NCBI GenBank assembly: GCA_964545475.1
Contig: CAZJGG010000001.1
Location: 6,173 to 70,172, forward strand
From: an uncultured Eubacteriales bacterium
Lineage (GTDB): Bacteria > Bacillota > Clostridia > Lachnospirales > JAISER01
Direction: 5' to 3'
Length of the DNA stretch: 64,000 bases
The position numbers were made by a program, and so were the translations under genes. The first letter of the stretch is position 1. Each line of letters begins with the position of its first letter. The notes under the pieces were generated by a model. It was not told the DNA's origin and did not search any database. It was given only the letters and a program-made list of their open reading frames with translations. Positions 4,777 to 46,656 of the stretch are shown piece after piece.

Positions 4777-6744
4777 TTGGATAAGAAAGAGTTAAAGCTG
4801 CTCAAGATAGAGCAGCTCCCAAACACTATTGAGACGTCGCAAATCTCTGATAGTATGAAAATTAGATATGCCTTTGTAGCAAAAAAGCATAGCCTAGGGA
4901 AAGAGCAAATATTAGAAGTAATCTTCTTTTCCCTTTATACCAAGATAGCAGAATTTAGAGTGTTTTTCAATAAAAATTTATTTATTACAGAGAAATTAAA
5001 CCCAGAACGCTGCTGGTCTGAAAGCACAATTGAAAACTTAATTTGTGCGTGGAACACCGGAATTGTATGCGCCAATGAACATTCCAAGGAGCTTATATGC
5101 AAGTATTTTAAAACGGAGGAAAATCCTTACAAAGCAATGCGAGAATTCCAGGCGAAACTAAGAAAAACACAATTAGCGCAGCGTCACAAGAAAGAGACAG
5201 ATAAAATAGATGCACATATGAAATTGATGCCAAGCCTGCCTAAATATTTTGAAAGATGGGTCAATGAAGTTGCGCTTAACAAAAGCCGGTATATCTACTA
5301 CAAAAAAGTCACCTCAAATAAGATGGAGGGTTTTTGCACATCGTGTCTTTCAAACGTTACTTATCATATTTCAAAAAACAATCAATTCAAGGACGTGCGC
5401 CACAACCAACCTGGCAAGTGCCCGTTGTGTGGCAACCGTGTTATATATAAAGCCGTAGGAAAGACGACATTACTAGTTGATTATGTTAATGCGGCTATTA
5501 TACAAAAAACTAAAAAGGGCTTGGTTGTTAGGTATTTTGCCGTAACTAAGGAATATAAGGGTCATTATAAAAACCCCACGCTTCACATCCATGAACAGGT
5601 GCGGGATTTTTATGAAGACGGTCAATGCATTACCTATGAATACAACAATTACAAGCAAACCGGGCGTTTAAGATGGTGTTACAGCGCTAATAGGTTTAAC
5701 CCTTACAATGCGTGTTTGTATACCCGAAATTTAAGGCGTGTCTTAAACGATACAGAGTGGAAATACAGCTGCATATATGAATTAGCAAAAAATATGGATA
5801 ATTTCAATGTGGACATGTACCTTAGGGCTTATAAAAATTACCCAGTATATGAATACCTTATCAGGCTTAGATTATTCAAATTGGTTGCTGAAAACACAAC
5901 GGGTTATAGGTACAACAGCGAGATTAATTTAAATGGCAACGGTATAAATGAAGTTCTGGGCATTGACAAGCTAATGCTTAAACAGCTACAGCGGATTAAT
6001 GGATCAATTGAACACTTGGCGCTTTTAAAGTTAGCCTATAAGGCGACCATATATCTAAAAGACGATGAAATAAACTGGGTGGTTAAAAATGGGGTTAATG
6101 CTGACAATTTTGTAAAATTACTTAAATACACCACGGCTCACAAGGTCATTAAATACGTCGAAAACTGTTGTGTAACAATGAAAAAACAGCTTAAAGCGGA
6201 CGATGGGTTTTTCGCATACGGAAGCCCACAAGCAAACATTGTAAACGACTGGAGAGATTATCTCGAAAATAGCGCATTACTAGGATACGACCTAAAAAAC
6301 AGTATGCTGTTATTTCCAATGGATCTAAAATCACGCCATGATGAGGTGGTAGTGCGGATTAATGCCGAAAGTAACGAGCTCTTTAACAAAGCTATTATTG
6401 AAATGTCAGAGAAACTAAACTCAAGGTTCGGATATAAGGGCAAATCTCTTATTATTTACGCACCAAGGTCCGCTGATGAAATTATAGCTGAGGGACATGC
6501 ATTGCATCATTGTGTGGGAGGCAGATTATATATTGAGGGAATGGCTAAAGGCGAACACATCATTTTGTTTATTCGCAGGGTCACTCAACCGGATGAGCCA
6601 TTTTATACAATTGAGATTAAGGATAACATTGTAAACCAGTGTCGGGGAAAAAATAACCACGGAATGACAGATGAAGTAAAGCAATTCATTTCTGAATGGC
6701 AGAAAAAGAAGCTGAAAGTTAATAAAACTGATAAAAGCGCATAA
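4777..6744 (+). CDS. PcfJ-like protein
   Basis: C-terminal EGHALHHCVGGRLYIEGMAKGEHIILFIR...PFYTIEI...IVNQCRGKNN resembles the PcfJ-like domain. CxxC...CPLCG zinc ribbon mid-protein. TTG start with GGAGG RBS. Confidence 0.6.
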   Translation: MDKKELKLLKIEQLPNTIETSQISDSMKIRYAFVAKKHSLGKEQILEVIFFSLYTKIAEFRVFFNKNLFITEKLNPERCWSESTIENLICAWNTGIVCANEHSKELICKYFKTEENPYKAMREFQAKLRKTQLAQRHKKETDKIDAHMKLMPSLPKYFERWVNEVALNKSRYIYYKKVTSNKMEGFCTSCLSNVTYHISKNNQFKDVRHNQPGKCPLCGNRVIYKAVGKTTLLVDYVNAAIIQKTKKGLVVRYFAVTKEYKGHYKNPTLHIHEQVRDFYEDGQCITYEYNNYKQTGRLRWCYSANRFNPYNACLYTRNLRRVLNDTEWKYSCIYELAKNMDNFNVDMYLRAYKNYPVYEYLIRLRLFKLVAENTTGYRYNSEINLNGNGINEVLGIDKLMLKQLQRINGSIEHLALLKLAYKATIYLKDDEINWVVKNGVNADNFVKLLKYTTAHKVIKYVENCCVTMKKQLKADDGFFAYGSPQANIVNDWRDYLENSALLGYDLKNSMLLFPMDLKSRHDEVVVRINAESNELFNKAIIEMSEKLNSRFGYKGKSLIIYAPRSADEIIAEGHALHHCVGGRLYIEGMAKGEHIILFIRRVTQPDEPFYTIEIKDNIVNQCRGKNNHGMTDEVKQFISEWQKKKLKVNKTDKSA

Positions 6745-6906
6745 GAGAGGGGTAATTAATATTAAGTCAACTAATTTTAATACATTTGATAAATCAACAT
6801 TATGCAGAATGATTATAAATACTGTTCGTGCAGCTAAAGGTTTGCCTCCACTTAAGAGTAAATGTGTCGGGCAATCTTCTGAAAGCAAAAAGGGGGAGGT
6901 TTAACA

Positions 6907-7205
6907 TGGCTAAAGTAAAAAACGGCTATGAAGCTTTGATTACAAGAGAACAATTTAACGAACTTAGGAAAATGGATAGGGTAGAAACAGAGGCTTTTCT
7001 AAGGGTTATTTTTGAAAAAGGTTATACCAAAGGATATAAGGAAGCCGAAATCAAACTTTGCGAAGACTCTAGAGTAAGTAAAAAGGCAAACATTAGGGGT
7101 GAAATTGTTTCTTTTCTTTCCTCAATACCAGGTTTTGGACCAGCAACATTGCGAAAAATAAAAGAAGCCTTGGAAAAGTGGTGCGAACCAGATGTCGTAC
7201 AATAA
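6907..7205 (+). CDS. Small helix-hairpin-helix DNA-binding protein, hypothetical
   Basis: GGGGGAGG RBS 7 nt upstream of ATG 6907. IPGFGPATLRKIKEAL HhH motif. The upstream extension to 6828 has no RBS. Confidence 0.5.
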
Positions 7206-7307
7206 GCTACCCCCATCAAATAGAGGCTTAAATTTAATTTAAAACATAAGTATTGCCTGAAAAGGGTTACTTACACTATTAAAAAGGTATTGTTGATTGA
7301 GGTGTTA

Positions 7308-7350
7308 TGCATGGTTAAGACAGATTTATTAGCTTTGATGTGCATGGTTA
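7308..7350. repeat. Direct repeat tgcatggtta x2 spaced 33 bp apart, in the 220-nt gap upstream of dnaN
   Basis: tgcatggtta at 7308-7317 and 7341-7350, each followed by an agat(a)tttatt-like tail. Function unknown (operator or centromere-like candidate). Confidence 0.35.
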
Positions 7351-7425
7351 TGTTGGTAAAGATATTTATTTATTTTGCAAAAATTATGTTTAAACTAGCA
7401 ATCAATAAAATAGGGGGCAACAAAG

Positions 7426-8532
7426 ATGGATATAAAAATAGAAAAAAACACGTTACTTAATGGGCTTAACATAGTTTTAAAGGCTGTCAGTTACAGTAGT
7501 GTTATGCCAATATTAAAATGCGTATTGCTTAACGTTGAGGAAAGCGGCTTAAGGCTTACAACTAATGACTTGGAATTATGCATAGAAACTAAGGCACTTG
7601 ATGCAGATATTGAACAAACAGGTAAAATAGCCGTGGAAGCAAAGCTTTTCGCTGAGATTATAAAAAAACTGCCAGATGATTATGTGCAAATATTAACAAC
7701 CGATAAGCTTGAGGTAGAAATAAAAAGCGGAAAATCAAAATTTAAAATTATGGGTCAAGACCCTGAGCAATTCCCAGCACTTCCAGAAGTTATAAAAGAC
7801 AATAAGTTTACAATTGATCAGGGAACTTTAAAAGACGTGCTAAGACAAACATGCTTTTCAATTGATGCTGAGGCACAAAAAGCAGCTTTTACCGGTGAAC
7901 TCTTCGATATTTCCAAAAGTGAAATTAACTTGGTTTCTTCCGACGGATTTAGAATATCTCATCGTAGCCTTGAAGTTGATAAGACCGACTTAACATACAG
8001 TACAATCATTCCAGGCAAATCTATAATTGATATTATGAAAATTTTAGAAACAAGCGACAGCAAGGCAAATATATACTTTGAGAAAACATATGCTCTTTTT
8101 GACCTTGAAACATGTAAAGTCATTACAAGAGTAATTGCAGCAGATTTTATTGATTACCAAAATTTTTTTAATGCTGAATATTCAACTCTTGTTAAATTGA
8201 ATACAGAAGATTTTATTAACTGCGTAGATAGAGCCTGTATTGTAGCCGAAACTAATAAAAAAACACCTGTAAAGCTGGATATAAAAGATAAAAGCATAGC
8301 TATAACATCTCAAACACAGGTTGGTAATGTTTACGAAGAAATAAATGCCGATATTGACGGCAACTGTTTAACAATCAGATTTAATCCAAGGTACTTAATG
8401 GAAGCATTAAGGGCTATCGAAGATGAAGAGGTAACGATACAGTTTAGCTCATCACTTACACCATGTATTATACGTCCTGTTGATAGCGGTAATTTTGAAT
8501 ATTTGATTCTGCCGTTAAGATTGGAAAATTAA
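7426..8532 (+). CDS. dnaN: DNA polymerase III beta subunit (sliding clamp), phage-encoded
   Basis: 368 aa, collinear with bacterial DnaN (N-terminal ..NIVLKAVS....PILKCVLL...LRLTTNDLEL.., FPALPEV, SSDGFRIS). Confidence 0.85.
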   Translation: MDIKIEKNTLLNGLNIVLKAVSYSSVMPILKCVLLNVEESGLRLTTNDLELCIETKALDADIEQTGKIAVEAKLFAEIIKKLPDDYVQILTTDKLEVEIKSGKSKFKIMGQDPEQFPALPEVIKDNKFTIDQGTLKDVLRQTCFSIDAEAQKAAFTGELFDISKSEINLVSSDGFRISHRSLEVDKTDLTYSTIIPGKSIIDIMKILETSDSKANIYFEKTYALFDLETCKVITRVIAADFIDYQNFFNAEYSTLVKLNTEDFINCVDRACIVAETNKKTPVKLDIKDKSIAITSQTQVGNVYEEINADIDGNCLTIRFNPRYLMEALRAIEDEEVTIQFSSSLTPCIIRPVDSGNFEYLILPLRLEN

Positions 8533-8550
8533 TAAACAAACCATTAAAGG

Positions 8551-8805
8551 TTGATGTTTATGGACAAATTGGACTATGCAATATTAGATGTATTGTTAAA
8601 TACTTTTGGAGCTGTTACAAGGATGAAATCTGTAACTTTAAAAGTTATTTTAACTGAAATACAAATTAATGATAGAACTCTCTATCGTAGATTAAAAAAT
8701 CTTTTGATTAGAAACTATATTTTAAAAGGCATTCAAGATATTAGAGAACACACATATTACATCAGCGAACATGGAATGAAAATATTAGAGGAGGCTTTGA
8801 AATGA
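8551..8805 (+). CDS. Small winged-HTH DNA-binding protein (TubR-like candidate)
   Basis: 84 aa wHTH-like (LKVILTEIQINDRTLYRRLKNLLIRNYI). Overlaps the downstream tubulin-like gene (translationally coupled). Confidence 0.5.
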   Translation: MMFMDKLDYAILDVLLNTFGAVTRMKSVTLKVILTEIQINDRTLYRRLKNLLIRNYILKGIQDIREHTYYISEHGMKILEEALK

Positions 8806-9836
8806 AAGAAAGTATTGGATTTATAGCTGTAGGGCAAGGCGGTGGGAATATCGGCACTCTGCTTGAAAAAAACGACTATAACGTTTTATACCTCAACACC
8901 TCACTTGAGGACTTAGATACGTTAAAAACCTCGAAATTTAAACACCACATTAAAAACGGCGAAGGCTGCAACAAAGATAGGGATAAAGCAAAAGAACTTA
9001 TCATCGGAGATTTTGAAGCCATATCAGAGCAAATTAAGTCTAAGCTTCAGGAAGAATACATCTATGTTATTTTTAGCGCAGGAGGCGGCACCGGCTCTGG
9101 TGCTTCCCCAATGCTTGTTGACTTACTCATTAATAATACTAACAAAAAAGTCGGTGCTATAACTATACTTCCTGCAAAAACAGAGCCCCTCAAAACTTAT
9201 ATTAACTCTTACGAATGCTTTAAAGAACTTGAAAGCATTGAAAATATGTGCTGTACATTTATCCTAGACAATAATACCGGAGACAAACTTTCCATTAACA
9301 AAACATTTGCAGATTTATTTGAATCATTTATTGAAATACCACAATTTAAAAGCGTTAAGGGCAATATAGATAAAGCTGAAATTAAAGAGCTCTTGTCAAC
9401 CAGGGGAGCAGCCCATATATGCAAGCTTGGCAAAACAACCAGCTCAACACCACGGCTTATAAGCACAATTAAGGAAAACATATTTGCCCCTCTTGAGCCT
9501 GATAAAGTAATAAAATACATGGGCATTTCAACCGTGACCAACATTGATACTGATGCTCTCATAAAGGAATTTGGTTCATGCTTGGACATTTACCAAAGCA
9601 CAAACCAAATACATACCGTGTGTATGCTTTGCGGTCTATCATTCCCCTACTCTACGCTAGAAACCATAAAGTCCAAAGTAATGTCTTCGCAAGATGACAT
9701 TACCCGAAATTTAAAAGCCACACAAGAAAATAAACTTGATGATGATATTAATTTTGTTAATCGTATAACCACTAACTCTACTATAGCACCAAAATCTGAT
9801 ACAAAGGATATTTTTGCAAAATACCGGCGCAAGTAA
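8802..9836 (+). CDS. Tubulin/FtsZ-superfamily GTPase (TubZ/PhuZ-like)
   Basis: GQGGGNIG (aa 11-18) and the tubulin signature GGGTGSG (aa 94-100, nt 9081-9101), followed by ILP..T and DNN loops in FtsZ/tubulin order. Confidence 0.75.
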   Translation: MKESIGFIAVGQGGGNIGTLLEKNDYNVLYLNTSLEDLDTLKTSKFKHHIKNGEGCNKDRDKAKELIIGDFEAISEQIKSKLQEEYIYVIFSAGGGTGSGASPMLVDLLINNTNKKVGAITILPAKTEPLKTYINSYECFKELESIENMCCTFILDNNTGDKLSINKTFADLFESFIEIPQFKSVKGNIDKAEIKELLSTRGAAHICKLGKTTSSTPRLISTIKENIFAPLEPDKVIKYMGISTVTNIDTDALIKEFGSCLDIYQSTNQIHTVCMLCGLSFPYSTLETIKSKVMSSQDDITRNLKATQENKLDDDINFVNRITTNSTIAPKSDTKDIFAKYRRK

Positions 9837-9856
9837 AAGTAAGGAGGAATAGAATT

Positions 9857-10696
9857 ATGAACAAAACAAAGATAGATTGGTGCGATATGAGTTGGAATCC
9901 TGTTACTGGATGTTTACATGATTGTACATATTGTTATGCAAAAACAATAGCTAAACGGTTTGGAGGGCACAGTGATTTTGATTATTTTATAAACCATTTG
10001 GACGAAAAAGGTAATTATGTATCTGATGAATGCAAACTCCATGTTATTGAAGATGCAATGGTGAAACAAAGCTCGGATTTGGAGGGGCGTATCGCTCCAT
10101 ATCCATTTGAGTTTGAGCCTACATTGCATAAATATAGACTAAGTGAACCTCAAAGAAAAACTAAGTCTCAGAATATTTTTGTTTGTAGTATGGCTGATTT
10201 ATTTGGTGATTGGGTGCCGGACGAGTGGATACAAGAGGTTTTTGAAACTTGCGAAGCTGCACAGCAGCATAGGTATTTATTTTTAACAAAAAATCCTAAA
10301 AGGTATTACGAAAGCATAAGCAAAATAAGATTCCCCGTTCTTCAAAATTTCTGGTTTGGCATGACAGTTACAAGTAATATAGAGCTAATACGCAATTTTA
10401 ATAATCTAGAGAGAATGAAGCCTTTCAAAACCTTTCTAAGCATTGAGCCATTACAAGAAGACATTACTCGTTTTCATGATTATAAAATTACTTTCGATTG
10501 GGTTATCATTGGCGCAGAAACCGGAAACCGAAAGGGCAAGGTTATTCCTAAAAAAGACTGGATTGATAACATTGTTAGGCAGTGTCGCAAGTATGACGTT
10601 CCTATTTTTATGAAGCGTGGCGAAAAGCAAAAAGATGGTACATATTTTATGGAAAACTTAATGGGCGCAGATTTTGTTCAGGAATTTCCGTGGTAA
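9857..10696 (+). CDS. Phage Gp37/Gp68 family protein (DUF5131), three-Cys CX3CX2C motif
   Basis: N-terminus KIDWCDMSWNPVTGCLHDCTYCYA is typical of this family. C19-x3-C23-x2-C26 lies at nt 9911-9934. Confidence 0.75.
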   Translation: MNKTKIDWCDMSWNPVTGCLHDCTYCYAKTIAKRFGGHSDFDYFINHLDEKGNYVSDECKLHVIEDAMVKQSSDLEGRIAPYPFEFEPTLHKYRLSEPQRKTKSQNIFVCSMADLFGDWVPDEWIQEVFETCEAAQQHRYLFLTKNPKRYYESISKIRFPVLQNFWFGMTVTSNIELIRNFNNLERMKPFKTFLSIEPLQEDITRFHDYKITFDWVIIGAETGNRKGKVIPKKDWIDNIVRQCRKYDVPIFMKRGEKQKDGTYFMENLMGADFVQEFPW

Positions 10697-10710
10697 AGGA
10701 GGAAACAGAG

Positions 10711-11606
10711 TGATTGGCAATACTTATACATACAGAATATACGATACAACCATACTATTTACACACAAAAGTCGTATTGACTTTGATAAATTTAATCCAA
10801 TAAAATTTCCACATTACAAAATATTTAGGGATTCGCTTAATTTATTAGGTGCTAACGGCTTCTTTATTCAGCCGGACAAAACAATACCCCCGATAATAAG
10901 AAAGCACTATTTCATAGGGAAATATAAGGATTTAGAATTTAAAGCTCAGATATATCCTACCGGGCTTGAAATAACCTTCTTTCAAAATATTATTTGTGAG
11001 AATAAAAACGGTGGGCAGTATGATTTTGATAAGCTTCAAAAAATGCCCTACATGATAAGGCTTGAATTTATAAAAATCATTAATAAGCTAAAAGACTACA
11101 TGTCAATAGTTGGCGCTACTGACACGAGCGATAAGCATTATAAACTTGCCGTAGATAGAATTAAGCAAGATTATGTAAATAGTTGCCATAAGCCACAAAA
11201 AAACATGGACTTTGATTTAACAGAAATTCATGGAACAACATGCGACTATACTTATAACAACAAAGACCGTGACGGCAAAACTATTTACAACGGCGACATT
11301 AAATATTTTCGTGGTTACAATGGCGAGCTTCAAAGAGGCGTTGTATATTACGATTTAAATAGGAACTGGTATGTAATTATCAATAAATTTACATACAAGG
11401 TCGTGCAAAACTATAAATTATTTGACCCAACCGAAGAAGATTTTAAACGCCGTAGGGTTGCGACCGACCGAACTCCTAAAGAATATTTGATTAAAAAAGA
11501 GAAACTACAACAGGCAACATCAAGAGAACTGATTAATGAGCTTAAAAGGCGTGGAATAATTTGTAATTCTTTAAAACAAAAGAAGAAATCGGAATTTAAT
11601 GTTTAA
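10711..11606 (+). CDS. Hypothetical protein, coupled to the DUF5131 gene
   Basis: AAAGGAGGAAACAGAG RBS then GTG 10711. Coding-like composition. No motif recognised. Confidence 0.5.
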
Positions 11607-11701
11607 CGAGGAATTTTTATATTCTTTCAGCCAATGGATTAAGATGGCAAAAGAGGCGGTCAGTAATCTTGTGGAAATGCTCAACAACATCCAGAAAAGA
11701 A

Positions 11702-12079
11702 ATGAGCGTGAGAAGAAAAGTGGAGGAACTTTCAAATATTCTGAAGTGTTTAAGAGTTGGAGTAATAACAGACGAATATATTCTACAAAACCAAATAGCA
11801 GACCTACTACATACAAACAATATTTCACACACAAAAGAGTACAAGCTAGGTCGAGGCAGCCGAGTAGATTTTCTGACAGACAACGGCATCGCAATAGAAG
11901 TCAAGAAGGGCAAGCCCAACAAGCTTAAGGTATATGAGCAACTAATGAGATACGCTGAGTTTGAAGAAATTAACGGCATAATTTTGATTATAGAAACTAG
12001 CTTGCAAATACCAAACATTATAAACGGGAAGCCATGCCAAACTATTGGGCTTCGCAAGCAATGGGGGATAGCATTATGA
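11702..12079 (+). CDS. PD-(D/E)xK-type nuclease-fold protein (VRR-NUC/Hjc-like)
   Basis: RVDFLTDNGIAIEVKKG gives a D...E-x-K arrangement after an N-terminal acidic helix. ATGA overlap with the SNF2 gene. The start is uncertain (TTG 11669 or ATG 11702). Confidence 0.5.
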   Translation: MSVRRKVEELSNILKCLRVGVITDEYILQNQIADLLHTNNISHTKEYKLGRGSRVDFLTDNGIAIEVKKGKPNKLKVYEQLMRYAEFEEINGIILIIETSLQIPNIINGKPCQTIGLRKQWGIAL

Positions 12080-13812
12080 TACCTGCTCACATGCAGAAAA
12101 ATTTAACCGCAGATTATTATTATGGGGAATTAATAGCTGAGATTAATGCTAACATGGATATAGTCAACTGGATTATCGAGGGAGAGCCTATTGTTATACA
12201 AATGGCAAAACGGATTTTCCCAGGTTCATCCGGCAGAGGTGCAGGTATTGCAAAATTCCCAAACAGCAAACGCCTAATTAAAGATTTAAACTGGCTTATG
12301 CTTAAATATCCTCTTAAAATAAAAGATTTATCACATTGGGAAAGCGCATACAGCCAAGCATTAGACTACTCAATAAAGAAAAAATCCAACGAATTTATCA
12401 CCAAAACGACACCTTCTTTGGAATTTAAAGGTGAACTAAAAGATTTTCAAAAGCAAGGTCTTACGTTTTTACTCAATAACGACAGAACGCTTCTTGCGGA
12501 CGAAATGGGCTTAGGTAAAACCATTCAGGCACTTGCCTACCTTGCAAAAGAAAAACTATATCCTGCTATTATCGTCGCACCTCCTCACTTAATTAAAAAC
12601 TGGGAAAAGGAAATAAACCGCTTTGTTAGCTTACCGGAAACTGGTCAATTAAGGCTTGGAGAAACAAATACAGACACGTCAATCCACGTAATAAAAGGGC
12701 TTAAACCTTATGAGCTCCCGGAAGCAAGCATATATTTAATTCATTACCTCTTACTTAGGGGGTGGAAGACAGAGCTTCCTACTAGAAATTTTAAAGCTGT
12801 AGTATATGATGAAATCCAAGAACTAAGGCATGGAAAGACCGAAAAATATAGTGCGGCATCTTTGCTTTCCGACTCCGCTCAAAAAGTTGTTGGGCTTAGC
12901 GGCACACCTATTTACAACAGAGGAGGCGAAATGTGGCACGTGCTTAATATCCTTGAGTATCACTGTTTAGGCGACTGGGATAGCTTTACCAGGGAATGGT
13001 GCTATGGGTATGCCTCTGATATTGTCAAAAACCCAAGCATGTTAGGAGACTATTTAAAACGTGAGGGATTAATGCTTCGCCGCCTAAAGTCGGAAGTTTT
13101 AGAAGAATTGCCGTCTAAGCACAGGGTATTGCAAACAATTGACTTCGATAACAAAAAATATGGAGAATTAATCCAAAACGCTATCGAAAAGGCGAAAAGC
13201 ATAGATTTTATGACTGACCATTTTGAAAAAGGCAGAACCACACGAGATGTTGTCAATGAAACAAGACGGGCAATAGGTGTTGCAAAATCACCATATGTTG
13301 CGGAATTTATAAAAATGCTTTTAGATGCAGGGGAAAATGTATTGTTGTTTGCTTATCACCATGATGTGTTTGATATATACCGTGAGGAACTAAAAAGATA
13401 TTCCCCTGTTGAAATAACTGGAAAGCAAACAGCCAAAGAAAAGGATATATCAGTAACAAAATTTATGGATGGGGAAACTAATATTTGCGTAATAAGCCTC
13501 CGGGCTGCCGCCGGATTAAACCTACAAAGAGCAACTTGCGTTGTGTTCGGCGAACTCGACTGGTCACCGGCGATACACTCCCAAGCCGAGGATAGGGCGC
13601 ACCGCATGGGGCAAAAGGACAGCGTTTTGTGCTATTACCTTGTTGCGGAAGAAGGTACAGACGAAGTTATACAAGAGTTCCTAGGGCTTAAAGTGGCACA
13701 GTTTAACGGCATCATGGGTGACAAAGGAGAAACCGAGGAAGATAAAGTTATAGCCCAAGGCGTTGCTACAGAGCATATGTCTAGGATTGTTGATAAATTA
13801 AAAAAGAAATGA
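12076..13812 (+). CDS. SNF2-family DEAD/DEAH-box helicase
   Basis: LADEMGLGKTIQ (motif I), YDEIQELR (DExQ, motif II), SGTPIYN, AAGLNLQ, HRMGQKDSV (motif VI). Confidence 0.85.
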   Translation: MIPAHMQKNLTADYYYGELIAEINANMDIVNWIIEGEPIVIQMAKRIFPGSSGRGAGIAKFPNSKRLIKDLNWLMLKYPLKIKDLSHWESAYSQALDYSIKKKSNEFITKTTPSLEFKGELKDFQKQGLTFLLNNDRTLLADEMGLGKTIQALAYLAKEKLYPAIIVAPPHLIKNWEKEINRFVSLPETGQLRLGETNTDTSIHVIKGLKPYELPEASIYLIHYLLLRGWKTELPTRNFKAVVYDEIQELRHGKTEKYSAASLLSDSAQKVVGLSGTPIYNRGGEMWHVLNILEYHCLGDWDSFTREWCYGYASDIVKNPSMLGDYLKREGLMLRRLKSEVLEELPSKHRVLQTIDFDNKKYGELIQNAIEKAKSIDFMTDHFEKGRTTRDVVNETRRAIGVAKSPYVAEFIKMLLDAGENVLLFAYHHDVFDIYREELKRYSPVEITGKQTAKEKDISVTKFMDGETNICVISLRAAAGLNLQRATCVVFGELDWSPAIHSQAEDRAHRMGQKDSVLCYYLVAEEGTDEVIQEFLGLKVAQFNGIMGDKGETEEDKVIAQGVATEHMSRIVDKLKKK

Positions 13813-31179: not shown

Positions 31180-31355
31180 ATGATCTTTTGTTTACTCCTG
31201 TTTTAGCCGGGCACTGGAAACAGCATGAGCTTTGGGATGGCACGTACACTCTTGACGATTTGTTGGACATAGTTGAGGTACTACAAGTTAAGGCTGAAAA
31301 CGAACGAAGAGCTAACGAAGCTGCCGAAACGGAGGCGAAGATAAGAAATGGCTAG
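30676..31355 (+). CDS. Tail assembly chaperone, -1 frameshift fusion product (GT-like)
   Basis: A slip at T TTT TTC (31104-31110) joins ..IAGFF to RRKPLEFNIE...ETEAKIRNG in the -1 frame. The product ends 8 nt inside the tape measure gene start. Confidence 0.6.
31104..31110 (+). promoter_or_regulatory. Programmed -1 ribosomal frameshift heptamer T TTT TTC
   Basis: X XXY YYZ heptamer in the correct zero frame (GGT TTT TTC). The -1 frame is open for 82 further codons. Confidence 0.6.
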
Positions 31356-33870
31356 CAACATACTATCAGAATACCTTGTAAAGCTTGGCATTAAAGATGA
31401 CCTCTCTAATAAACTTAAAGATATTTTGAGTAAATCATCTCAAGAAGTAAATCTTTTTGCTAAAGGTTTTGTTATTGCAGGTGGAGCTGTAGCCAGTCTT
31501 CTAGTCGCCGCCAATACAGGTATAGCAAAATTTGCTACAAACCTTGTTAAATCAGATGATGAGCTTACAAAATATGCAAAATCTATAAACAAAAGCAAAG
31601 AAGAGGCTTTTAAACTAAAAACTTCGCTTGATGCCATGGGTAAATCTATGGATGAAATTAAAAAGAGTGCAGAGCTTACTACAGTCTTTAAACAGCTCCA
31701 AAGGGATGCCGAAGGTATTAAGCCTCCTGATATGTCTGAAGGTCTAAAACAAGTAAAAGAAATTCAGACTGAGTTTGTGCGCCTAAAGCAATCCGGAAGC
31801 TACGCAATCCAGTGGGTAGGCCATTATTTACTAAAATACTTGCAGCAACCCATGACAAAGATGAAAGAGATATTTGGAGGCTTAAACGATTCTGTAATAA
31901 AAAACATGCCTAAATGGTCGGAAAAAATAGCTTCCGTCATGGCTTCTTTTGTTAGGCTTGGATTGACTGTTATACGAGGAGCATCTGCAATATTTAATGC
32001 TGTAAAGCAAATTTTTGATATGATTCCTAAAGAGATAAAGATTGTGGGGGGAGCGTTGGCTGCCCTTGCTTTGTTTATACGTGCAGGACCTATAGGAAAG
32101 TTAATAACAATTATTTCACTTGCTTTGTTACTTCTTGAGGATTTTTATACATACCTTGATGGCGGTGATGCTTTACTAGGAGGTATTTGGCAAAAGCTAA
32201 TAGACATCTGGAAAGTGCTTAAAGATAGTGGTGTTTTAGAAGCATTTAGGAATGGATTTGTAAATGCTTTAAATCTTATTGTAGAAAAAGCTACCGCTGT
32301 AATAGACATATTAAATAAATTCGGTTTAACTGATAAGATAATTAAAGGACTATTGATTACATTTCTTGGTTTTAAAGGTGTTGATATTGTAACAAATAAA
32401 TTAAACGCCTTTGCCAAAATATTAGGCAGTATATCAAATACAAATAAAACAGGTAAAATTGCAGGGCTTTCAAAAGCCTTTGGAAATGTCGTAAAGTCTA
32501 TTCCTAAAGTACCGCCATTCGTCTTGTGGATTGTAGGCATAACCGCATTAATAGGTATACTTGCTTTACTTTTTAAAAATAAAGAAAAAGTTCAAGAATT
32601 TATAAATGTCATTAAAGAAAAGACTAGAGAATTTTTAAATAAGTTAACTGAAATGCTTCCAGAACTTGTCCGAATAGGTGCAGAAATTGTTAATTTTTTA
32701 ATAGAAGGCGCAATGCAGATACTGCCACAGCTTATAGATGCCGGTATTAAAATTCTCACGTTTTTAATAAAAGGATTTATTAGGACCTTACCAAAGATTA
32801 TTAGTACTGTTTTAGTTTTAATTAATAAAATATTATCTACCCTAATTCAACACCTTCCAATGATTGTGCAGGCTGGCATAAATATTATTATGGCATTAAT
32901 CAATGGAATATTGAGTATTTTACCTGCATTAATAGAAGCTACAATTCAGCTTGTTATGGCAATATTAGATGCGATTATTAGTAATCTTCCATTTATAATT
33001 GAAGCTGGTATTCAAATATTACTTGCACTGATAAACGGAATCATACTGATCTTACCTCAGTTAACTGAGGCTGCAATAAACCTTATAATCACAATAATAA
33101 AAGCATTAGTTGAAAACTTGCCAACGATAATTGAAACTGGCATAAAAATTCTCATTGCCCTGATTAATGGTATTGTAAAAGCTATACCAAAACTTGTTGC
33201 TGCTATGCCTAAAATTGTTAAAGCTATTCTTAATGGATTAAAGATATTAAGCGTGGAACTTTTGAAACTTGGAGCAGATTTAGTAAGAATGCTTTGGGAA
33301 GGCATTCTTTCAATGGGTTCGTGGATTGGAGGCAAAGTCAGCGGGTTTTTTAAAGATTTATTTAATAAACAGAAGATTGAGGCAGAAGTCGAAACCATAA
33401 ACGCTAACGACCCAAAACCAAAACCATCCCCAAGTCCTGTCTCAGGCGGGGCTAGGGGTTACGCAGATGGTGGAATCGTAGACAAAGAGCAAATAGCCCA
33501 TATTGCAGAGGGTAACAAACCAGAAGCGATTATCCCTCTAACAAAACCTAATAGAGCCAGAGAATTATTGTCTGGTGCAATGAATTATTTGGGAATGGAT
33601 AATAAGGATAAACTCTCGCAAAAAATAGCTATGCTCACACAATTTACTGAAAAAGCTTATAACAAGCTTAATACCTTAGATGCTGGGTTAAATCAAAACT
33701 CAAGCTACTTATATACAACAAACAATACCGCTACAAACTATTATAATATTGAAATGCCAAGCAACTATACTATAAATGATGTGTCTGGCAGACCAGAGGC
33801 AATATCACAAGCAGTTGATAGGACTGCACAGATAAGGTTAAGAAACTTGCAGGGTGTTTTAAATACTTAA
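31348..33870 (+). CDS. Tail tape measure protein
   Basis: 840 aa with a long helical/hydrophobic repeat region (..LPxIIxAGIxILxALINGI.. repeated about 8 times). Position after the chaperone. Confidence 0.85.
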   Translation: MASNILSEYLVKLGIKDDLSNKLKDILSKSSQEVNLFAKGFVIAGGAVASLLVAANTGIAKFATNLVKSDDELTKYAKSINKSKEEAFKLKTSLDAMGKSMDEIKKSAELTTVFKQLQRDAEGIKPPDMSEGLKQVKEIQTEFVRLKQSGSYAIQWVGHYLLKYLQQPMTKMKEIFGGLNDSVIKNMPKWSEKIASVMASFVRLGLTVIRGASAIFNAVKQIFDMIPKEIKIVGGALAALALFIRAGPIGKLITIISLALLLLEDFYTYLDGGDALLGGIWQKLIDIWKVLKDSGVLEAFRNGFVNALNLIVEKATAVIDILNKFGLTDKIIKGLLITFLGFKGVDIVTNKLNAFAKILGSISNTNKTGKIAGLSKAFGNVVKSIPKVPPFVLWIVGITALIGILALLFKNKEKVQEFINVIKEKTREFLNKLTEMLPELVRIGAEIVNFLIEGAMQILPQLIDAGIKILTFLIKGFIRTLPKIISTVLVLINKILSTLIQHLPMIVQAGINIIMALINGILSILPALIEATIQLVMAILDAIISNLPFIIEAGIQILLALINGIILILPQLTEAAINLIITIIKALVENLPTIIETGIKILIALINGIVKAIPKLVAAMPKIVKAILNGLKILSVELLKLGADLVRMLWEGILSMGSWIGGKVSGFFKDLFNKQKIEAEVETINANDPKPKPSPSPVSGGARGYADGGIVDKEQIAHIAEGNKPEAIIPLTKPNRARELLSGAMNYLGMDNKDKLSQKIAMLTQFTEKAYNKLNTLDAGLNQNSSYLYTTNNTATNYYNIEMPSNYTINDVSGRPEAISQAVDRTAQIRLRNLQGVLNT

Positions 33871-33939
33871 TGCAAACATATAGACACGATTATTTTGTTG
33901 TGTTAGTATTGATTTATATTATATTTTGGAGGGGTAAGT

Positions 33940-34467
33940 GTGAAAAATGGTATTAAAGGGTTCATTGTCGGTTTATTTGTAAGCGTTGTAGGGGTTGCCA
34001 CTGCATTTGCTTCTGGAGGTATAAGAACGGCAGAGTTCAACTCCAACAAGGTCATTTTCAACGGAAAGCAACTAGATTTATCTTCCCAACAACTTATATC
34101 TGTTGTTAAGGACGGCGAATCAAGCGTTAGTAACTATATGCCTGTAAGGGCTGTTTTGGAACAGATGGGCTATAATGTAGGTTGGGATTCACCGACAAAC
34201 AGCATAACCATATCACATAATAAGATTGGTTTAGATGACATCATTGAGGATAGCGGAGTTACACTTAGACAGATGTTACTTAGAGAAGGTCATCGCATTG
34301 ATCTCAATACTATTAAAAACTTAGAATCTTATAGTGACCTAGAGTTTTTTAGTAGCGTATTAGAGCCTGAAATGCTTGCGATACTAATTGTCGATGACTA
34401 CATAACATGGAAAGATGAAGGAGAATCACTTTTTTCTGATATATGGGAGAATTTTTATATTAATTAA
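33940..34467 (+). CDS. Secreted protein with copper-amine-oxidase-N-terminal-like (stalk) domain; moron
   Basis: Signal peptide (..VATAFA/SGG). VIFNGKQLDL...YMPVRAVLEQMGYNVGWDSPTNSITIS. Has its own GGAGGGG RBS, an upstream AT-rich gap and a downstream terminator. Confidence 0.65.
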   Translation: MKNGIKGFIVGLFVSVVGVATAFASGGIRTAEFNSNKVIFNGKQLDLSSQQLISVVKDGESSVSNYMPVRAVLEQMGYNVGWDSPTNSITISHNKIGLDDIIEDSGVTLRQMLLREGHRIDLNTIKNLESYSDLEFFSSVLEPEMLAILIVDDYITWKDEGESLFSDIWENFYIN

Positions 34468-34470
34468 ATT

Positions 34471-34500
34471 AAAACACTCGCTTGATTGCGAGTGTTTTTT
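34471..34500 (+). terminator. Rho-independent terminator after the moron
   Basis: acactcgc-ttgatt-gcgagtgt followed by ttttt. Confidence 0.7.
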
Positions 34501-34514
34501 GATGGAGGCGTACA

Positions 34515-35111
34515 GTGGCTGAATACAATAAATCCCCACACGGTCAAGATGACGTATCCCAGCTAATAAGTGTAAAAACTAATATAAGCGGTTATTTCTT
34601 CGATGCATTCTTAAAACTTGACCACAGCAGTAAACTAAAAATAACAGAACACCCGGTTGAGGAAGGCGCAAACATAGCCGACCATGCATATGTAGAACCA
34701 CAATCTCTAACTATGGAAATAGGCATGTCTGATGTTTGCACAAGTTATGTAGATGGTCAGTTTAATCAGAGCTACACTCGTTCAGTATCAGCTTTCGACA
34801 CATTGAAAACATTACAGGAAAAAAGAGAGCCTTTAACTGTACACACACGTTTAAAGACGTATGAAAATATGCTTATTGAAACAATAACCGTACCAGACGA
34901 TTATATGACACTAAATGGTCTTCGTGCTACAATTGGGCTTAGGGAAATAATAGTAGCAAAAGTAAAAACGGTTGCAATGCCGAACAGAACGAGTGCAAAG
35001 CCACAAAAAACAGGGGAGACAAAGAAAGGCACAGTTACTCCTGTTAATAATTCGGTTATTCGTGATATATCAAATTTATTTACCAGAAACAGCGGTAGAA
35101 ACAAGGAATGA
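34515..35111 (+). CDS. Tail/baseplate protein (distal-tail-like), putative
   Basis: GGAGG RBS with GTG start. First gene of the baseplate block. Confidence 0.45.
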   Translation: MAEYNKSPHGQDDVSQLISVKTNISGYFFDAFLKLDHSSKLKITEHPVEEGANIADHAYVEPQSLTMEIGMSDVCTSYVDGQFNQSYTRSVSAFDTLKTLQEKREPLTVHTRLKTYENMLIETITVPDDYMTLNGLRATIGLREIIVAKVKTVAMPNRTSAKPQKTGETKKGTVTPVNNSVIRDISNLFTRNSGRNKE

Positions 35112-37126: not shown

Positions 37127-37417
37127 ATGCCAGAAGCTGCAAGACTAGGTGACAAAAGCACCGGTCATGATGATTGCGCCCCAACAGCATTAGTTACGGG
37201 TAGCCCAAACGTATTTATTAATGGAAAACCAGCTGCAAGAGTATCAGACAAATTTGCTTCCCACGGTTGCGATGAACATCCCCCACATCAGGATGAAGTA
37301 ATTCAAGGAAGCTCTACAGTATTTATTAATGGGCTTCCGGCTGCTAGAAAAGGTGACAAGCTTAAAATAGCTGGGACAATAGCAGAAGGAAGCCCAAACG
37401 TTTTTATAGGTGGTTGA
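37127..37417 (+). CDS. PAAR-domain spike-tip protein
   Basis: Three SPNVFINGKPAAR / STVFINGLPAAR / SPNVFIGG repeats with His/Cys ligands. Confidence 0.75.
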   Translation: MPEAARLGDKSTGHDDCAPTALVTGSPNVFINGKPAARVSDKFASHGCDEHPPHQDEVIQGSSTVFINGLPAARKGDKLKIAGTIAEGSPNVFIGG

Positions 37418-41706: not shown

Positions 41707-42177
41707 TTGCAAAGATTATTTTTATGGTTGCTGTTCGGAGGTTTAGTATATTACGGCATAGAGGGCATATGGCACATACCAATAAACGGCGGATGGGCTA
41801 ACATATTAATGCTTTTTATAGGCGGTATTTGCTTTGTTTTAATTGGCGGCATAAACCAAATACCAAAATTTTATAAATTATCAATACGGGCACAATCATT
41901 TATCGGCACTCTAATTGTACTTATTGTAGAATTTTTATCAGGTTACATCTTGAACATACGACTAAAGATGGACATTTGGGATTATTCGGAAATGCCATTT
42001 AATATTCTAGGACAAGTTTGCTTGCTTTATGGTGCGTTATGGCTTCTTCTTTTACCGTTTGCAATATGGCTTGAGGACAGGCTTAACTTAATATATGTAT
42101 CTTATAAAAAAATGCCTTTAAACAACGTTTATGATTATACACTGCTTGAGGCATACAAAGAATTTTTTAAATTATAG
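41707..42177 (+). CDS. Polytopic membrane protein (about 4 TM, DUF1113-like)
   Basis: Four hydrophobic segments. GGAGGGAGG RBS with TTG start. Confidence 0.5.
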   Translation: MQRLFLWLLFGGLVYYGIEGIWHIPINGGWANILMLFIGGICFVLIGGINQIPKFYKLSIRAQSFIGTLIVLIVEFLSGYILNIRLKMDIWDYSEMPFNILGQVCLLYGALWLLLLPFAIWLEDRLNLIYVSYKKMPLNNVYDYTLLEAYKEFFKL

Positions 42178-42245
42178 AAAAAAACAAAAAAATAAAAAAG
42201 TTATTCATATATCAAAATTTAATTACAGGAGATGAACTAAACAAT

Positions 42246-42992
42246 ATGGATAGCTTTATAGCATGGGTGGGCGGTAAAAAGCTTTTACGCAAAGAAATTT
42301 GCAGCAGATTCCCCCAAAATTTTAATAAATACGTTGAAGTTTTCGGAGGTGCGGCATGGGTTCTATTTCACAAAGAAAACCATGCAGACACTGAAATTTA
42401 TAACGACCTAAACAGCAATTTAACCAACCTTTTTAAATGCGTTAAATATCATTCCAACGCTATTGGTGAGGAGTTAGAACTTGTTTTAAATTCAAGAGAC
42501 TTTTTTAATGATTTTAAATGTCTCTATAACGTTGATACACTCACCGATATTCAAAGGGCAGCGAGATATTTATATATGATAAAGGCAAGTTATGGCGCAA
42601 AAGTCACTACATATGGCGGTAAAACCAGAGATATTACCAATACCGATTTTTTAAAAACGGTTAAAGAGCGCTTAAAACACGTTATAATTGAAAACAAAAG
42701 CTTTGAAAAAATAATTGAACAGCACGATGCCGAAGATACTTTATTTTATTGCGATCCGCCTTACCACGGGGCAGAAAAATATTATGGATTACAATTCGCC
42801 GATGAACAGCACAGTCTTTTAAATAAATGTTTAAGTGACATTAAGGGGAAAGTTATTGTTTCATATAATGATTGCGAGTTTATCGAACATCTTTACAAGG
42901 GATGGAACATTGATAAAATCCAGCGTTCAAATAACCTTTCTCTAAAAGCAGAAAATAAGACTTATAAAGAACTTATAATAACTAATTACTAA
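42246..42992 (+). CDS. dam: DNA adenine methyltransferase (Dam / D12 class), orphan
   Basis: N-terminal FIAWVGGKKLL, FGGAAWV (SAM-binding) and the DPPY catalytic motif. Confidence 0.85.
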   Translation: MDSFIAWVGGKKLLRKEICSRFPQNFNKYVEVFGGAAWVLFHKENHADTEIYNDLNSNLTNLFKCVKYHSNAIGEELELVLNSRDFFNDFKCLYNVDTLTDIQRAARYLYMIKASYGAKVTTYGGKTRDITNTDFLKTVKERLKHVIIENKSFEKIIEQHDAEDTLFYCDPPYHGAEKYYGLQFADEQHSLLNKCLSDIKGKVIVSYNDCEFIEHLYKGWNIDKIQRSNNLSLKAENKTYKELIITNY

Positions 42993-43103
42993 TTTTTTTA
43001 AATGGAAAATAACCTATTTAGTAATTAAATAACTTAAATCGCTTAAATATTTTTAAAAATGATAATATCGTACTAAATACGTAATTTAGGAGTGGATATT
43101 GTC

Positions 43104-43349
43104 ATGATTAAAATACATCTATCAAGAATTTTAGGAGAATTACGCATGACACAAGCCGAGCTTGCACAAAAAACAGGAATTCGCCCGGCGACTATAAACG
43201 AAATGTATCACGAGCTAATCGAACGAATAAATTTAGAATATTTAAGCCGCATTTGTAAAGTCCTTGACTGCGAAGTTCAGGATATTCTTCAATATATACC
43301 TGATGATAAATATAAGCATGTAAAAAATAAAAAGAATATCTTTAATTAG
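43104..43349 (+). CDS. XRE-family HTH transcriptional regulator
   Basis: LRMTQAELAQKTGIRPATINEMY helix-turn-helix. Confidence 0.7.
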   Translation: MIKIHLSRILGELRMTQAELAQKTGIRPATINEMYHELIERINLEYLSRICKVLDCEVQDILQYIPDDKYKHVKNKKNIFN

Positions 43350-43400
43350 CCATTAAATATTTTAAAGACAGCATTAAATTAAAATTAAGAAAGGTGAGAC

Positions 43401-43856
43401 ATGATGTCAAACAATATAGCGACAAGAGGCGCAATAGCGTCTTTTCTTTTTGTGCTTAGTTATTTATACAATTGCATTGGCACTATGGTTATCGTACTTG
43501 CGTTTGCAATGGCGTTAGACTATATTACAGGGCTTGCAGCGGCATATACTCTAAAGGAAATAAACAGTAAGACAGGCATTATCGGAATAATAAAAAAGGT
43601 ATGTTATATAATTCTGCTATTTATGGCTTTCTTGTTTGATCTAGCAATCGGCTATTTATTAGATGATTTAGGCATACAAATGCCAATACGAGAGATTTTC
43701 GGCGTTATGACGACATGCTGGTTGTTTGCAAATGAAGGTATAAGTATATTTGAAAACCTCATAAAGTTAGGAGTACCTGTGCCGGAGTTTCTGCAAAAAG
43801 GATTCAAACATTTAAAACAGTCCATAGATGATAAAGCTAACAAGGGGGGGTGCTGA
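43401..43856 (+). CDS. Holin (phage_holin_4_1 / toxin-secretion holin family)
   Basis: LDYITGLAAA and NEGISIFENLIKLGVPVPEFL family motifs. 3-4 TM segments. Immediately precedes the endolysin. Confidence 0.8.
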   Translation: MMSNNIATRGAIASFLFVLSYLYNCIGTMVIVLAFAMALDYITGLAAAYTLKEINSKTGIIGIIKKVCYIILLFMAFLFDLAIGYLLDDLGIQMPIREIFGVMTTCWLFANEGISIFENLIKLGVPVPEFLQKGFKHLKQSIDDKANKGGC

Positions 43857-43858
43857 TA

Positions 43859-44503
43859 TTGATAAATAGTAGGAATATCACAGACCTCCACCCTACGTTG
43901 CAGAGGGCGGCAACCGAGCTGATGAGGCGTTGCCAGTCTGAAAATTTGCCTATATTAATAACACAAACATACCGGGACAAAGAGTATCAAGATGACCTTT
44001 ATTCACAGGGGCGCACAAAACCCGGTTCAATAGTTACAAATAGCAAGGGTGGTCAATCCATGCATAATTATCGGATCGCCTTTGACTTCTGCAAAAACCT
44101 TAAAGGGCATGAATTTGATGATGCAATTTTTTTCACAAAGGTTGGAAAGATTTGGCGAGATATGGGCGGCGTTTGGGGCGGCGACTGGACAAAATTTATT
44201 GACAAACCGCATTGTGAGTTTACAAATGGATTGACACTCACGCAATTACAAAAAGGCATAACAATGCCAAATGAGACTAGGATGAAATGGGAGGAAAATA
44301 ATATGGCTGAAATCAAGTTAGATATAAACGGTAAAAAGGTAACTATACCTGGAGATAATATAAACGGTACAAATATGGTTAAGTTAAAGGACTTGTCGGT
44401 TATCATTCCTAATGAAGTAGTACCAATTCGATCCATATTCGAAGCGGCAGGGTATTCTGTGGGCTGGAACGGCAACACCGGAACAATAGAATTAAAAAAA
44501 TAG
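43859..44503 (+). CDS. Endolysin: peptidase M15 (VanY/L-Ala-D-Glu peptidase-like) with a C-terminal Cu-amine-oxidase-N-like wall-binding domain
   Basis: [20 protein letters not shown]...[11 protein letters not shown]...[13 protein letters not shown] (H, D, H zinc ligands). C-terminal INGKKV...[25 protein letters not shown]. The start is TTG 43859 or GTG 43850. Confidence 0.8.
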
Positions 44504-44619: not shown

Positions 44620-45081
44620 ATGTATTCCTGCATAATGCGTTTTGAGATTAATAATCCAGAGCGCATTTATCATTTTGTAAGCCAATGTGCACATGAAAGT
44701 GGATTGGGTTTATACAAAAAGGAAATTGCTTCAGGAGATGCCTATGAAGGACGCAAAGACCTAGGTAATATACTGCCAGGAGATGGCAAGAAATACAAAG
44801 GAGCTGGATATCTGCAAATGACTGGGCGCTCTAATTATCAGCGCTTTGCTAATTTCGTTAACGACCAACAAGTAATGGAGGGCGTTGATTATGTAGCTGC
44901 CATGTATCCATGGACAAGTGCTGGGTTTTGGTGGCATCGCAACAACATGAATGCTCTGTGTGATAATGTTGTAAAACTTGACATAGTACAAAAGGTTACT
45001 GCCGTGACTAAAAAAGTAAACGGAGGTACCAACGGACTTAATGAGCGTTTGAAATTTTACATGCTATGCAATGAGAAGTAA
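44620..45081 (+). CDS. GH19-family (chitinase-like) muramidase, second lysin; N-terminus unresolved
   Basis: [17 protein letters not shown]...YEGRKDLGN...[15 protein letters not shown] matches phage GH19 lysins. Homologous-looking sequence continues upstream of the first ATG. Confidence 0.65.
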
Positions 45082-46585: not shown

Positions 46586-46656
46586 AGCGGGTGATGGGAA
46601 TCGAACCCACGCATCCAGCTTGGAAGGCTGGTGTTCTACCATTGAACCACACCCGC
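46586..46656 (-). tRNA. tRNA-Gly (anticodon UCC)
   Basis: Reverse complement GCGGGTG-TG-GTTC-AATGGTA-GAAC-A-CCAGC-CTTCCAA-GCTGG-ATGC-GTGGG-TTCGATT-CCCAT-CACCCGC-T folds as a cloverleaf. No CCA is encoded. Confidence 0.9.

Follow-up and report, generated by a model that had tools for sequence, protein, structure and literature searches.

A moron-like cassette in the tail module of a Clostridia myophage prophage encodes a predicted exported protein that resembles the tape measure protein at its C-terminal tip

Why does a prophage tail module, whose genes otherwise follow one another almost without a break, hold a small gene with a terminator and a putative promoter of its own between the genes for the tape measure protein (TMP) and a Dit-like baseplate protein, and what might the product of that gene do? 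The question is raised by a segment at 33.87–34.50 kb of the 64,000-nucleotide stretch of DNA analyzed here, which we refer to as the window. The gene, designated X, was singled out in a preliminary description as a self-contained moron and a candidate for lysogenic conversion. One goal of this report is to define the cassette and its relatives; a second is to weigh the functions that the two parts of its product might support.

The cassette, its prophage and its relatives

By its gene content, the element in the window is an integrated Clostridia myophage prophage. Genes for terminase, portal, head, sheath, tube, baseplate and lysis functions extend to ~46.2 kb and are followed by a tRNA-Gly gene (46586–46656) and then by genes of host type (UDG, a phosphatase and a two-component system). 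The left 15 kb of the window are still occupied by phage replication and partition-type genes, and the left end of the prophage must therefore lie outside the window. The TMP is recognized through a best tail-annotated PHROG match at E 1e-39, and syntenic TMP homologues are present at loci L005, L011, L012 and L023–L031. Apart from the cassette, the structural genes are as tightly coupled as the preliminary description had them, overlapping or separated by gaps of ≤16 nt, with the single exception of the chaperone/TMP junction, which contains a frameshift ORF.

Table 1. Features of the X cassette and of the genes to which it is compared, in window coordinates
Feature	Position	Strand	Basis or remark
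TMP gene, 840 aa; stop codon TAA at 33868–33870	31348–33870	+	PHROG tape-measure families; directly 5' of the insertion
TMP residues 258–286, LALLLLEDFYTYLDGGDALLGGIWQKLID, conserved helix-loop-helix motif	32119–32205	+	BLASTP, hhalign, HMM
Intergenic region, 69 nt, AT-rich, putative promoter and RBS	33871–33939	+	Sequence
Putative sigma-A promoter: -35 TAGACA 33881–33886, 17-nt spacer, extended -10 TGtTAGTAT 33901–33909	33881–33909	+	Consensus scan
RBS, GGAGGGG	33928–33934	+	Sequence; GGAGG core 33928–33932, GTG 7 nt beyond core
Moron ORF X, 175 aa plus stop, GTG start at 33940	33940–34467	+	ORF translation
Signal-peptide-like N-terminus of X, residues 1–24, predicted cleavage A-F-A/S	33940–34011	+	Rule-based layout, family conservation
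PF07833 (Cu_amine_oxidN1, "stalk") half-domain of X, residues ~28–93	34021–34218	+	Pfam; conserved part of the family
C-terminal predicted five-helix domain of X, residues 96–175	34225–34464	+	No library match; fast-evolving
TMP-like motif at the C-terminus of X, residues 145–173, MLAILIVDDYITWKDEGESLFSDIWENFY	34372–34458	+	BLASTP, hhalign, HMM
Intrinsic terminator: 11-bp stem, 6-nt loop, T-run	34471–34500	+	Folding; hairpin itself 34471–34498
Dit-like baseplate gene	34515–35111	+	PF21821, E 6e-36; tail module resumes here
C-terminal PF07833 half-domain of the M15 (L-Ala-D-Glu peptidase-type) endolysin	44294–44497	+	Pfam, BLASTP, HMM

Set into this array are an AT-rich gap beyond the TMP stop codon, a GGAGGGG sequence, a GTG start with its ORF and a clean terminator, each of which had been described before and each of which we find in place (Table 1). 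NCBI and Logan (P0001) make an identical call of the start codon. The terminator hairpin, which begins 3 nt beyond the end of the ORF, folds with an energy of -16.2 kcal/mol (z = -5.8; none of 200 shuffled sequences is as stable), and a hairpin with a T-run lies 3' of the gene at 12 of the 14 loci with X homologues. An A-run 5' of the window terminator renders it potentially bidirectional. The promoter-like sequence of the window is a weak match (9 of 12 hexamer positions) from a consensus scan that is itself unenriched (69 sites vs 67 expected); it is non-significant when taken alone, and is credible only because of a comparative test carried out across the family. An extended -10 element (TGnTAnnnT) was found 15–60 nt 5' of the start at 11 of 12 family loci vs 2 of 33 control genes, and, when loci are counted by independent groups, in 8 of 9, which at a chance of 0.077 per locus corresponds to a binomial p of ~1e-8.

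The X family is rare. Searches of 5.8 billion proteins returned 13 and then 35 members, the 35 proteins making up a subfamily of PF07833 that is marked by a conserved SNYMPVRAVLEQMGY, and the homologues of X are 36–52% identical over their full length. Full-length copies that include the C-domain of X belong mostly to one lineage of syntenic myophages, in which they occupy four different slots: between TMP and Dit (the window, L005 and L010), between Dit and plug (L011, L012, L023–L029, L040 and L041), between head-completion and connector (L001 and L002), and between chaperone and TMP (L037). Three of these four slots adjoin the TMP gene or stand one gene away from it, and X always lies on the same strand as the structural genes. 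The TMP–Dit slot is filled in other ways among relatives. At L031 and L032 it holds a Gp49/HigB-like gene and an HTH_3 gene instead of X, of which neither locus has a copy in its sequenced TMP-to-baseplate region; at L025 it holds a 67-aa ORF; and at L030, whose Dit-like protein is the closest to that of the window (85% identity), it holds a reverse-strand HicA-like fragment, with the plug gene directly 3' of Dit and no X downstream of the Dit-like gene. Comparison of these loci shows that, in this myophage lineage, the junction of TMP and Dit is a hot spot for apparent cargo, either X or genes of toxin–antitoxin type. Full-length copies also occur outside tail modules, at L043 among chromosomal-type neighbors and at L039 beside an antitoxin-like ORF and a tRNA-like region.

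A moron in the sense of Juhala and Hendrix is an extra gene whose two neighbors, in related phages, are adjacent or have their junction differently filled. Further hallmarks are a promoter and a terminator of its own, an atypical base composition and expression from the repressed prophage. X is an extra gene in a variable slot and carries its own terminator. Its base composition is unremarkable, the GC content of the cassette (0.33–0.39) lying within the range of the flanks (0.30–0.44), and no foreign-DNA signal was seen in the cassette by GC and skew. Given the varied slots, the family-wide extended -10 element and the recurrent terminator, it is well supported at the sequence level that this segment, with its gene, its terminator and a putative promoter, is a self-contained cassette and structurally a moron, and on this point the preliminary description is borne out.

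A predicted export module and a tape-measure-like tip

The N-terminus of X has the layout of a signal peptide, as had been suggested from the sequence AFA/SGG: lysines at positions 2 and 6 are followed by ~18 hydrophobic residues and by A22-F23-A24/S25-G-G, and an AlphaFold2 (AF2) model places a helix at residues 4–25. The call for the family is rule-based, resting on the charge of the n-region, the h-region and small residues at -3/-1. By these rules X conforms to the sequence pattern of Sec/SPase I substrates, with cleavage predicted, and the same layout of two K/R, ~20 uncharged residues and [AV][FY]A/[AS] is kept in 17 of 17 full-length family members. A lipobox Cys is absent from all 17, and 16 of them have no Cys at all in the first 40 residues.

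The signal-peptide-like segment leads into a PF07833 half-domain, which scores 27.0 bits against a gathering cut-off of 24.2 over residues 65–95 and covers positions 20–50 of the 108-position profile. The N-terminal 95 residues are strongly conserved across the family, with an invariant SNYMPVRAVLE..G..V.W, and the region downstream is variable; the half-domain is modeled at a pLDDT of 81–88. The preliminary description had assigned the same stalk-type domain, that of the copper amine oxidase N-terminus, to X and to the C-terminus of the endolysin, and both parts of this claim hold, with each protein scoring above the cut-off and each carrying a half-domain. The M15/VanY endolysin (gene at 43850–44503) matches PF07833 at 28.0 bits over residues 149–214, its last ~65 residues corresponding to the other half of the profile from that found in X. 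BLASTP aligns X residues 37–92 with lysin residues 156–216 at 30% identity (E 3e-6), and an HMM of the family N-domain, searched against 369 six-frame ORFs of the window, recovers only X and the lysin (lysin E 3.8e-8; next best 0.76). The alignment of known phage lysins to the window lysin is confined to residues ~1–150, its catalytic part, so that the half-domain occupies the position of a cell wall-binding domain (CBD). In this respect, the window lysin resembles the modular M15 endolysins of Listeria and Bacillus phages, which likewise join the catalytic domain to a C-terminal module, but it differs from those with a CBD in that its C-terminal module is a PF07833 half-domain, a putative CBD by position. 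This half-domain was found in 0 of 184 matching phage records, and a homology search with the lysin C-terminal domain alone returned no candidate.

PF07833 domains are frequent in wall hydrolases and surface proteins (PMC4137172). The N-module of X is also found fused to a periplasmic sugar-binding domain (P0019), to BLIP/DUF3862 (P0012) and to other unrelated C-terminal regions, and on a chromosomal gene beside PTS genes (L007); a PepSY protein (P0033) and a PPIase (P0035) are distant PF07833 matches only (E 3e-8 and 2e-5). With such varied partners and a chromosomal location among its occurrences, the module looks like a generic device for export and surface retention, and, if it is a generic carrier, the specificity of X more likely resides in the C-terminal domain. 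The half-domain is probably a dimerization module as well. In PaSOD-1, a half-unit of the PF07833 type is a homodimerization domain that reconstitutes a CAO-N-like arrangement (PMC10432803), and X resembles the N-terminal domain of that protein (PDB 8IMD) in having about half of a CAO-N unit behind a signal peptide, which in X is a predicted one; between X and 8IMD there is no significant match by sequence or by Foldseek.

The C-terminal part of X is of a different kind. Its 81 residues have no match in Pfam, and a phmmer search with them against 1.84 billion representative proteins gave seven matches, of which five are true relatives; the other two, P0039 and P0040, were set aside as noise, each being a long repeat protein that is matched weakly at several stretches. 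X as a whole has no significant match to a known superinfection exclusion (Sie), defense or structural family in PHROGs, NCBIfam and PADLOC, nothing better than E 0.19 in a sequence search of the PDB, and one weak partial match among GenBank phages, and a Foldseek search with its model found no match in the PDB (8IMD included) or BFVD.

The C-terminal domain does show one similarity within the prophage itself. When an HMM of the C-domain was searched against the 369 window ORFs, the TMP was the sole match (E 1.6e-5; next best 1.6). BLASTP of the C-terminal tip against the prophage's own TMP gives E 7e-5, aligning X residues 146–172 (LAILIVDDYITWKDEGESLFSDIWENF) with TMP residues 258–284 (LALLLLEDFYTYLDGGDALLGGIWQKL), and a profile of 17 X sequences, aligned by hhalign to one of 8 TMPs, yields a probability of 89% and E 2.1e-6 over 29 columns. 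In a search of 3,046 ORFs from all fetched loci (336,757 aa), a 35-column HMM of the motif retrieved every copy of X and then 11 of 11 TMP ORFs, the latter at E 4.7e-8 to 8.1e-5 (window TMP 1.3e-6), before the next match at E 0.57. The C-terminal motif common to X and the TMP is a new finding that goes beyond the preliminary description. In the TMP, the motif lies behind a hydrophobic stretch at residues ~230–263, and this segment of the TMP has no match among GenBank phages. In the better AF2 model of X (pLDDT 78), the motif forms a terminal helix-loop-helix and is the most confidently predicted part (pLDDT ~94, with 85–94 over residues 120–170). We considered whether the motif had lately passed from one gene to the other by gene conversion, and rule this out, since its nucleotide identity between X and the TMP gene is just 47–53%, which speaks against any recent exchange. 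The motif is only ~29 residues long, and may be left over from recombination with the neighboring TMP gene or be a generic helical hairpin.

A second new finding is that evolutionary rates also differ between the two parts of X. For four moderately diverged phages (L011, L012, L023 and L029), dN/dS is 0.14–0.25 in the N-part, which argues that X is a real coding gene, and 0.49–1.83 in the C-part, the latter being drawn from an 85-codon region with indels in which relaxed constraint or alignment error could explain high values. The corresponding values are 0.08–0.24 for the Dit-like gene, 0.07–0.09 for the hub gene and 0.00–0.02 for the tube gene. These rates are suggestive of a C-domain that is diversifying or relaxed, with its tip kept conserved across the whole family.

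Candidate functions of X

The reading that we favor is that X is an exported, envelope-retained protein, expressed from the prophage, that interferes with TMP-dependent genome injection and thereby confers superinfection exclusion. We hold it tentatively, at somewhat less than even confidence. It is supported by the mobility of the cassette, the family-wide transcription signals, the conserved signal-peptide layout and varied partners of the N-module, the motif common to X and the TMP, the closeness of three of the four slots to the TMP gene, the conflict-like contrast in evolutionary rates and the precedents of HK97 gp15, Ltp and SNIPE. We infer that X is exported and retained at the envelope, that it is expressed in the lysogen, and that it acts in exclusion with the TMP as its target. 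X would be made from the repressed prophage, from a cassette inserted between the TMP and Dit-like genes; the Sec-type signal peptide would export it, and the PF07833 half-domain would retain it either in the wall or on the external side of the membrane. From there, the TMP-like tip of the small helical domain would disturb the action of the TMP that a related phage ejects on infection, or of the membrane partner of that TMP, and injection of the phage genome would be blocked in a manner analogous to that of HK97 gp15 or Ltp. That the C-domain carries a TMP-like motif points to the injection step, not to adsorption or lysis. Counted against the injection reading are the weak promoter match of the window, the unremarkable GC content of the cassette, the shortness of the shared motif, the relaxed constraint or alignment error that could lie behind the high dN/dS values, the copies of X that stand outside tail modules and its lack of homology to known Sie or defense families.

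The HK97 gp15 moron (Cumby et al. 2012, summarized in PMC3594210) adjoins the TMP gene and blocks injection, its N-terminus is bacterial-like and its C-terminus diverged, and exclusion depends on tail features of the incoming phage. Like gp15, which has its own promoter and terminator, X is a single small gene in the tail operon near the TMP gene, with a terminator and a putative promoter, and the slot between chaperone and TMP at L037 is identical to that of gp15. The gp15 protein is targeted to the envelope, as X is predicted to be exported, and both proteins join an N-terminal region common to ordinary bacterial proteins to a diverged C-terminus. However, gp15 is very small and sits in the inner membrane of a Gram-negative host, whereas X is a two-domain Clostridia protein of 175 aa that is predicted to be exported and carries a TMP-like motif, and the two share no sequence similarity (X has no PHROG match). 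Ltp of Streptococcus thermophilus phage TP-J34 is prophage-encoded and surface-exposed, and blocks DNA injection with the TMP as its target (Bebeacua 2013, cited in PMC3952083). X resembles it in being encoded by a prophage of a Gram-positive host and in its predicted surface location. Ltp differs in being a lipoprotein with a lipobox Cys and HTH-like repeat domains whose gene lies in the lysogeny module; X lacks a lipobox, has different predicted folds, is encoded in the tail module and resembles the TMP, which Ltp is not reported to do. Finally, SNIPE associates with TMPs during injection (PMC13190303).

One way in which X might act, to which we assign a low probability, is as a "tape-measure mimic", a decoy in which the juxtamembrane helix-loop-helix of the lineage's TMP is mounted on a generic surface-retention module. 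Such a decoy could poison TMP oligomerization or channel formation, or could occupy the TMP's membrane partner during injection by a related phage, and the remainder of the C-domain would diversify in an arms race. For Sie proteins, an exclusion mechanism based on mimicry is not described in the searchable literature.

Other functions must be weighed against interference with injection. The preliminary description proposed that X could occupy the envelope ligand used by the lysin or the phage receptor, giving superinfection exclusion or lysis protection; on this model, X would bind that ligand in the wall through its stalk domain and so block adsorption or shield lysogens from lysis from without. 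This proposal draws on the restriction of the PF07833 half-domain to X and the lysin within the window, on the CBD position that it takes in the lysin and on the frequency of PF07833 in wall hydrolases and surface proteins (PMC4137172), but we consider it rather unlikely: a probe made with a CuAO-N domain left Paenibacillus cells unlabeled (bioRxiv 10.64898/2026.09.23.753664), in PaSOD-1 the domain serves dimerization (PMC10432803), the domains of X and the lysin are just 30% identical, and a module that carries unrelated cargo domains is unlikely to set phage specificity. Additionally, binding to such a ligand would leave both the conserved TMP-like tip and the fast-evolving C-domain unexplained. 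A variant built on the same half-domains, namely that those of X and the endolysin pair and that X thereby tethers or neutralizes the lysin, affecting the timing of lysis or protecting siblings, strikes us as very improbable. X and the lysin do each carry about half of the 108-position profile, and a half-unit of this kind is known to dimerize (PMC10432803), yet the idea is purely a structural analogy and leaves the TMP-like motif without an explanation.

X might instead be a lysogenic-conversion factor with no part in conflicts between phages, a small protein kept at the surface that changes the host envelope, or serves adhesion or signaling in the gut, and that is carried merely as cargo. 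The moron architecture of the cassette, the ordinary chromosomal surface proteins among the relatives of the N-module and the full-length copies outside tail modules would all suit such a role; we nonetheless judge it unlikely, as full-length copies occur for the most part in a single myophage lineage, clustered around the TMP gene, and the conserved tip matches the TMP of that same lineage. The co-orientation of X with the structural genes, its usual proximity to the TMP gene and the motif that it has in common with the TMP might also be accounted for if X were a late accessory protein working with the TMP or the tail, for instance an envelope-side helper freed at lysis or a factor in the phage's own infection, which we regard as improbable. 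On this reading, the TMP-like motif would reflect a binding partner common to both proteins, such as the TMP or the chaperone of tail assembly. Late transcription has to cross the X terminator in any case, and presumably reads through it because only 47 nt separate X from the Dit-like gene. Against a late role, however, a signal peptide would take X out of the cytoplasm, the site of tail assembly; X has a putative promoter and a terminator of its own; it matches no PHROG structural family; and its slot is variable, X being missing from the L030, L031 and L032 regions, whose TMP–Dit slot has cargo of toxin–antitoxin type.

The kind of element to which X belongs, a moron and probably an exclusion gene, is one already known; for the X family, its C-domain and the sharing of a motif with the TMP, there was no match in the libraries searched and no description was found in the searchable literature. 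Even if its function proves mundane, X is still a tidy, ordinary moron. Its N-terminal half appears to define a compact module for export and retention, a signal peptide with a PF07833 half-domain, that Clostridia seem to attach to diverse extracytoplasmic domains. Finally, genome injection by phages of Gram-positive bacteria, and of Clostridia in particular, is poorly understood, as is the role in it of the membrane segments of the TMP, and a prophage protein in which a defined TMP segment of 29 residues is copied would offer a direct handle on injection, one that could be mutated in either partner.

Cargo at the tape measure–baseplate junction and a probable insertion near the holin

The junction between the tape measure protein (TMP) and Dit-like baseplate genes, which in the window holds the 175-aa moron ORF encoding a predicted exported protein (here X), is a hot spot for cargo in related myophages, as different cargo fills it in loci fetched for comparison (L031, L030 and L025; table). 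A D12-class N6-adenine methyltransferase gene is probably a second moron-like insertion in the window, since it is bounded by gaps of 68 nt (42178-42245) and 408 nt (42993-43400).

Features of the window and of comparison loci
Sequence	Position	Strand	Feature	Setting
L031	3170-3866		Gp49/HigB-like gene and HTH_3 (XRE) gene	TMP–Dit junction cargo
L030	1-83	minus	HicA-like toxin fragment	TMP–Dit junction cargo
L025	6032-6235		67-aa ORF	TMP–Dit junction cargo
L043	1-1606		X copy outside tail module	beside ~400-aa radical-SAM-like ORF and second chromosomal-type ORF
L039	74-1455		X copy outside tail module	beside DinJ/RelB-like antitoxin ORF and tRNA-like region
Window	4777-13812		PcfJ-like, DnaN-like sliding clamp, TubZ-like tubulin, DUF5131 and SNF2 helicase genes	left part of element
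Window	37127-37417		PAAR-motif protein	after spike gene
Window	41707-42177		PF06541 membrane protein	immediately upstream of methyltransferase gene
Window	42246-42992		D12-class N6-adenine methyltransferase gene	between tail-fibre genes and holin
Window	44620-45081		second lysin-like ORF	directly 3' of M15 endolysin gene
Window	46586-46656	minus	tRNA-Gly(UCC)	junction of last phage-like ORFs and host genes

Lysis cassette and ends of the element

A second wall hydrolase may accompany the M15 endolysin in the lysis cassette. The second lysin-like ORF matches PHROG endolysin families (E 1e-29), and a Pfam search of this ORF returned no match. At the right end of the element, the tRNA-Gly(UCC) gene is the likely integration site of the prophage. 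Separately, the TubZ-type partition gene on the left is an unusual constituent of a prophage integrated beside a tRNA gene.

Copies of the moron protein outside tail modules and tandem N-domain matches

Some full-length copies of X, including the conserved C-terminal motif that resembles a TMP segment, reside outside tail modules, in L043 and L039. Read by eye, the ORFs neighboring the L043 copy are putatively hemW-like and hrcA-like. Additionally, two termite-gut Clostridiales MAG contigs each carry, within one locus, two tandem matches to the N-terminal domain of X, which includes a PF07833 'stalk' half-domain (L021:7001-7504; L022:4124-4672), and therefore some relatives may hold two half-stalk units in a single protein.
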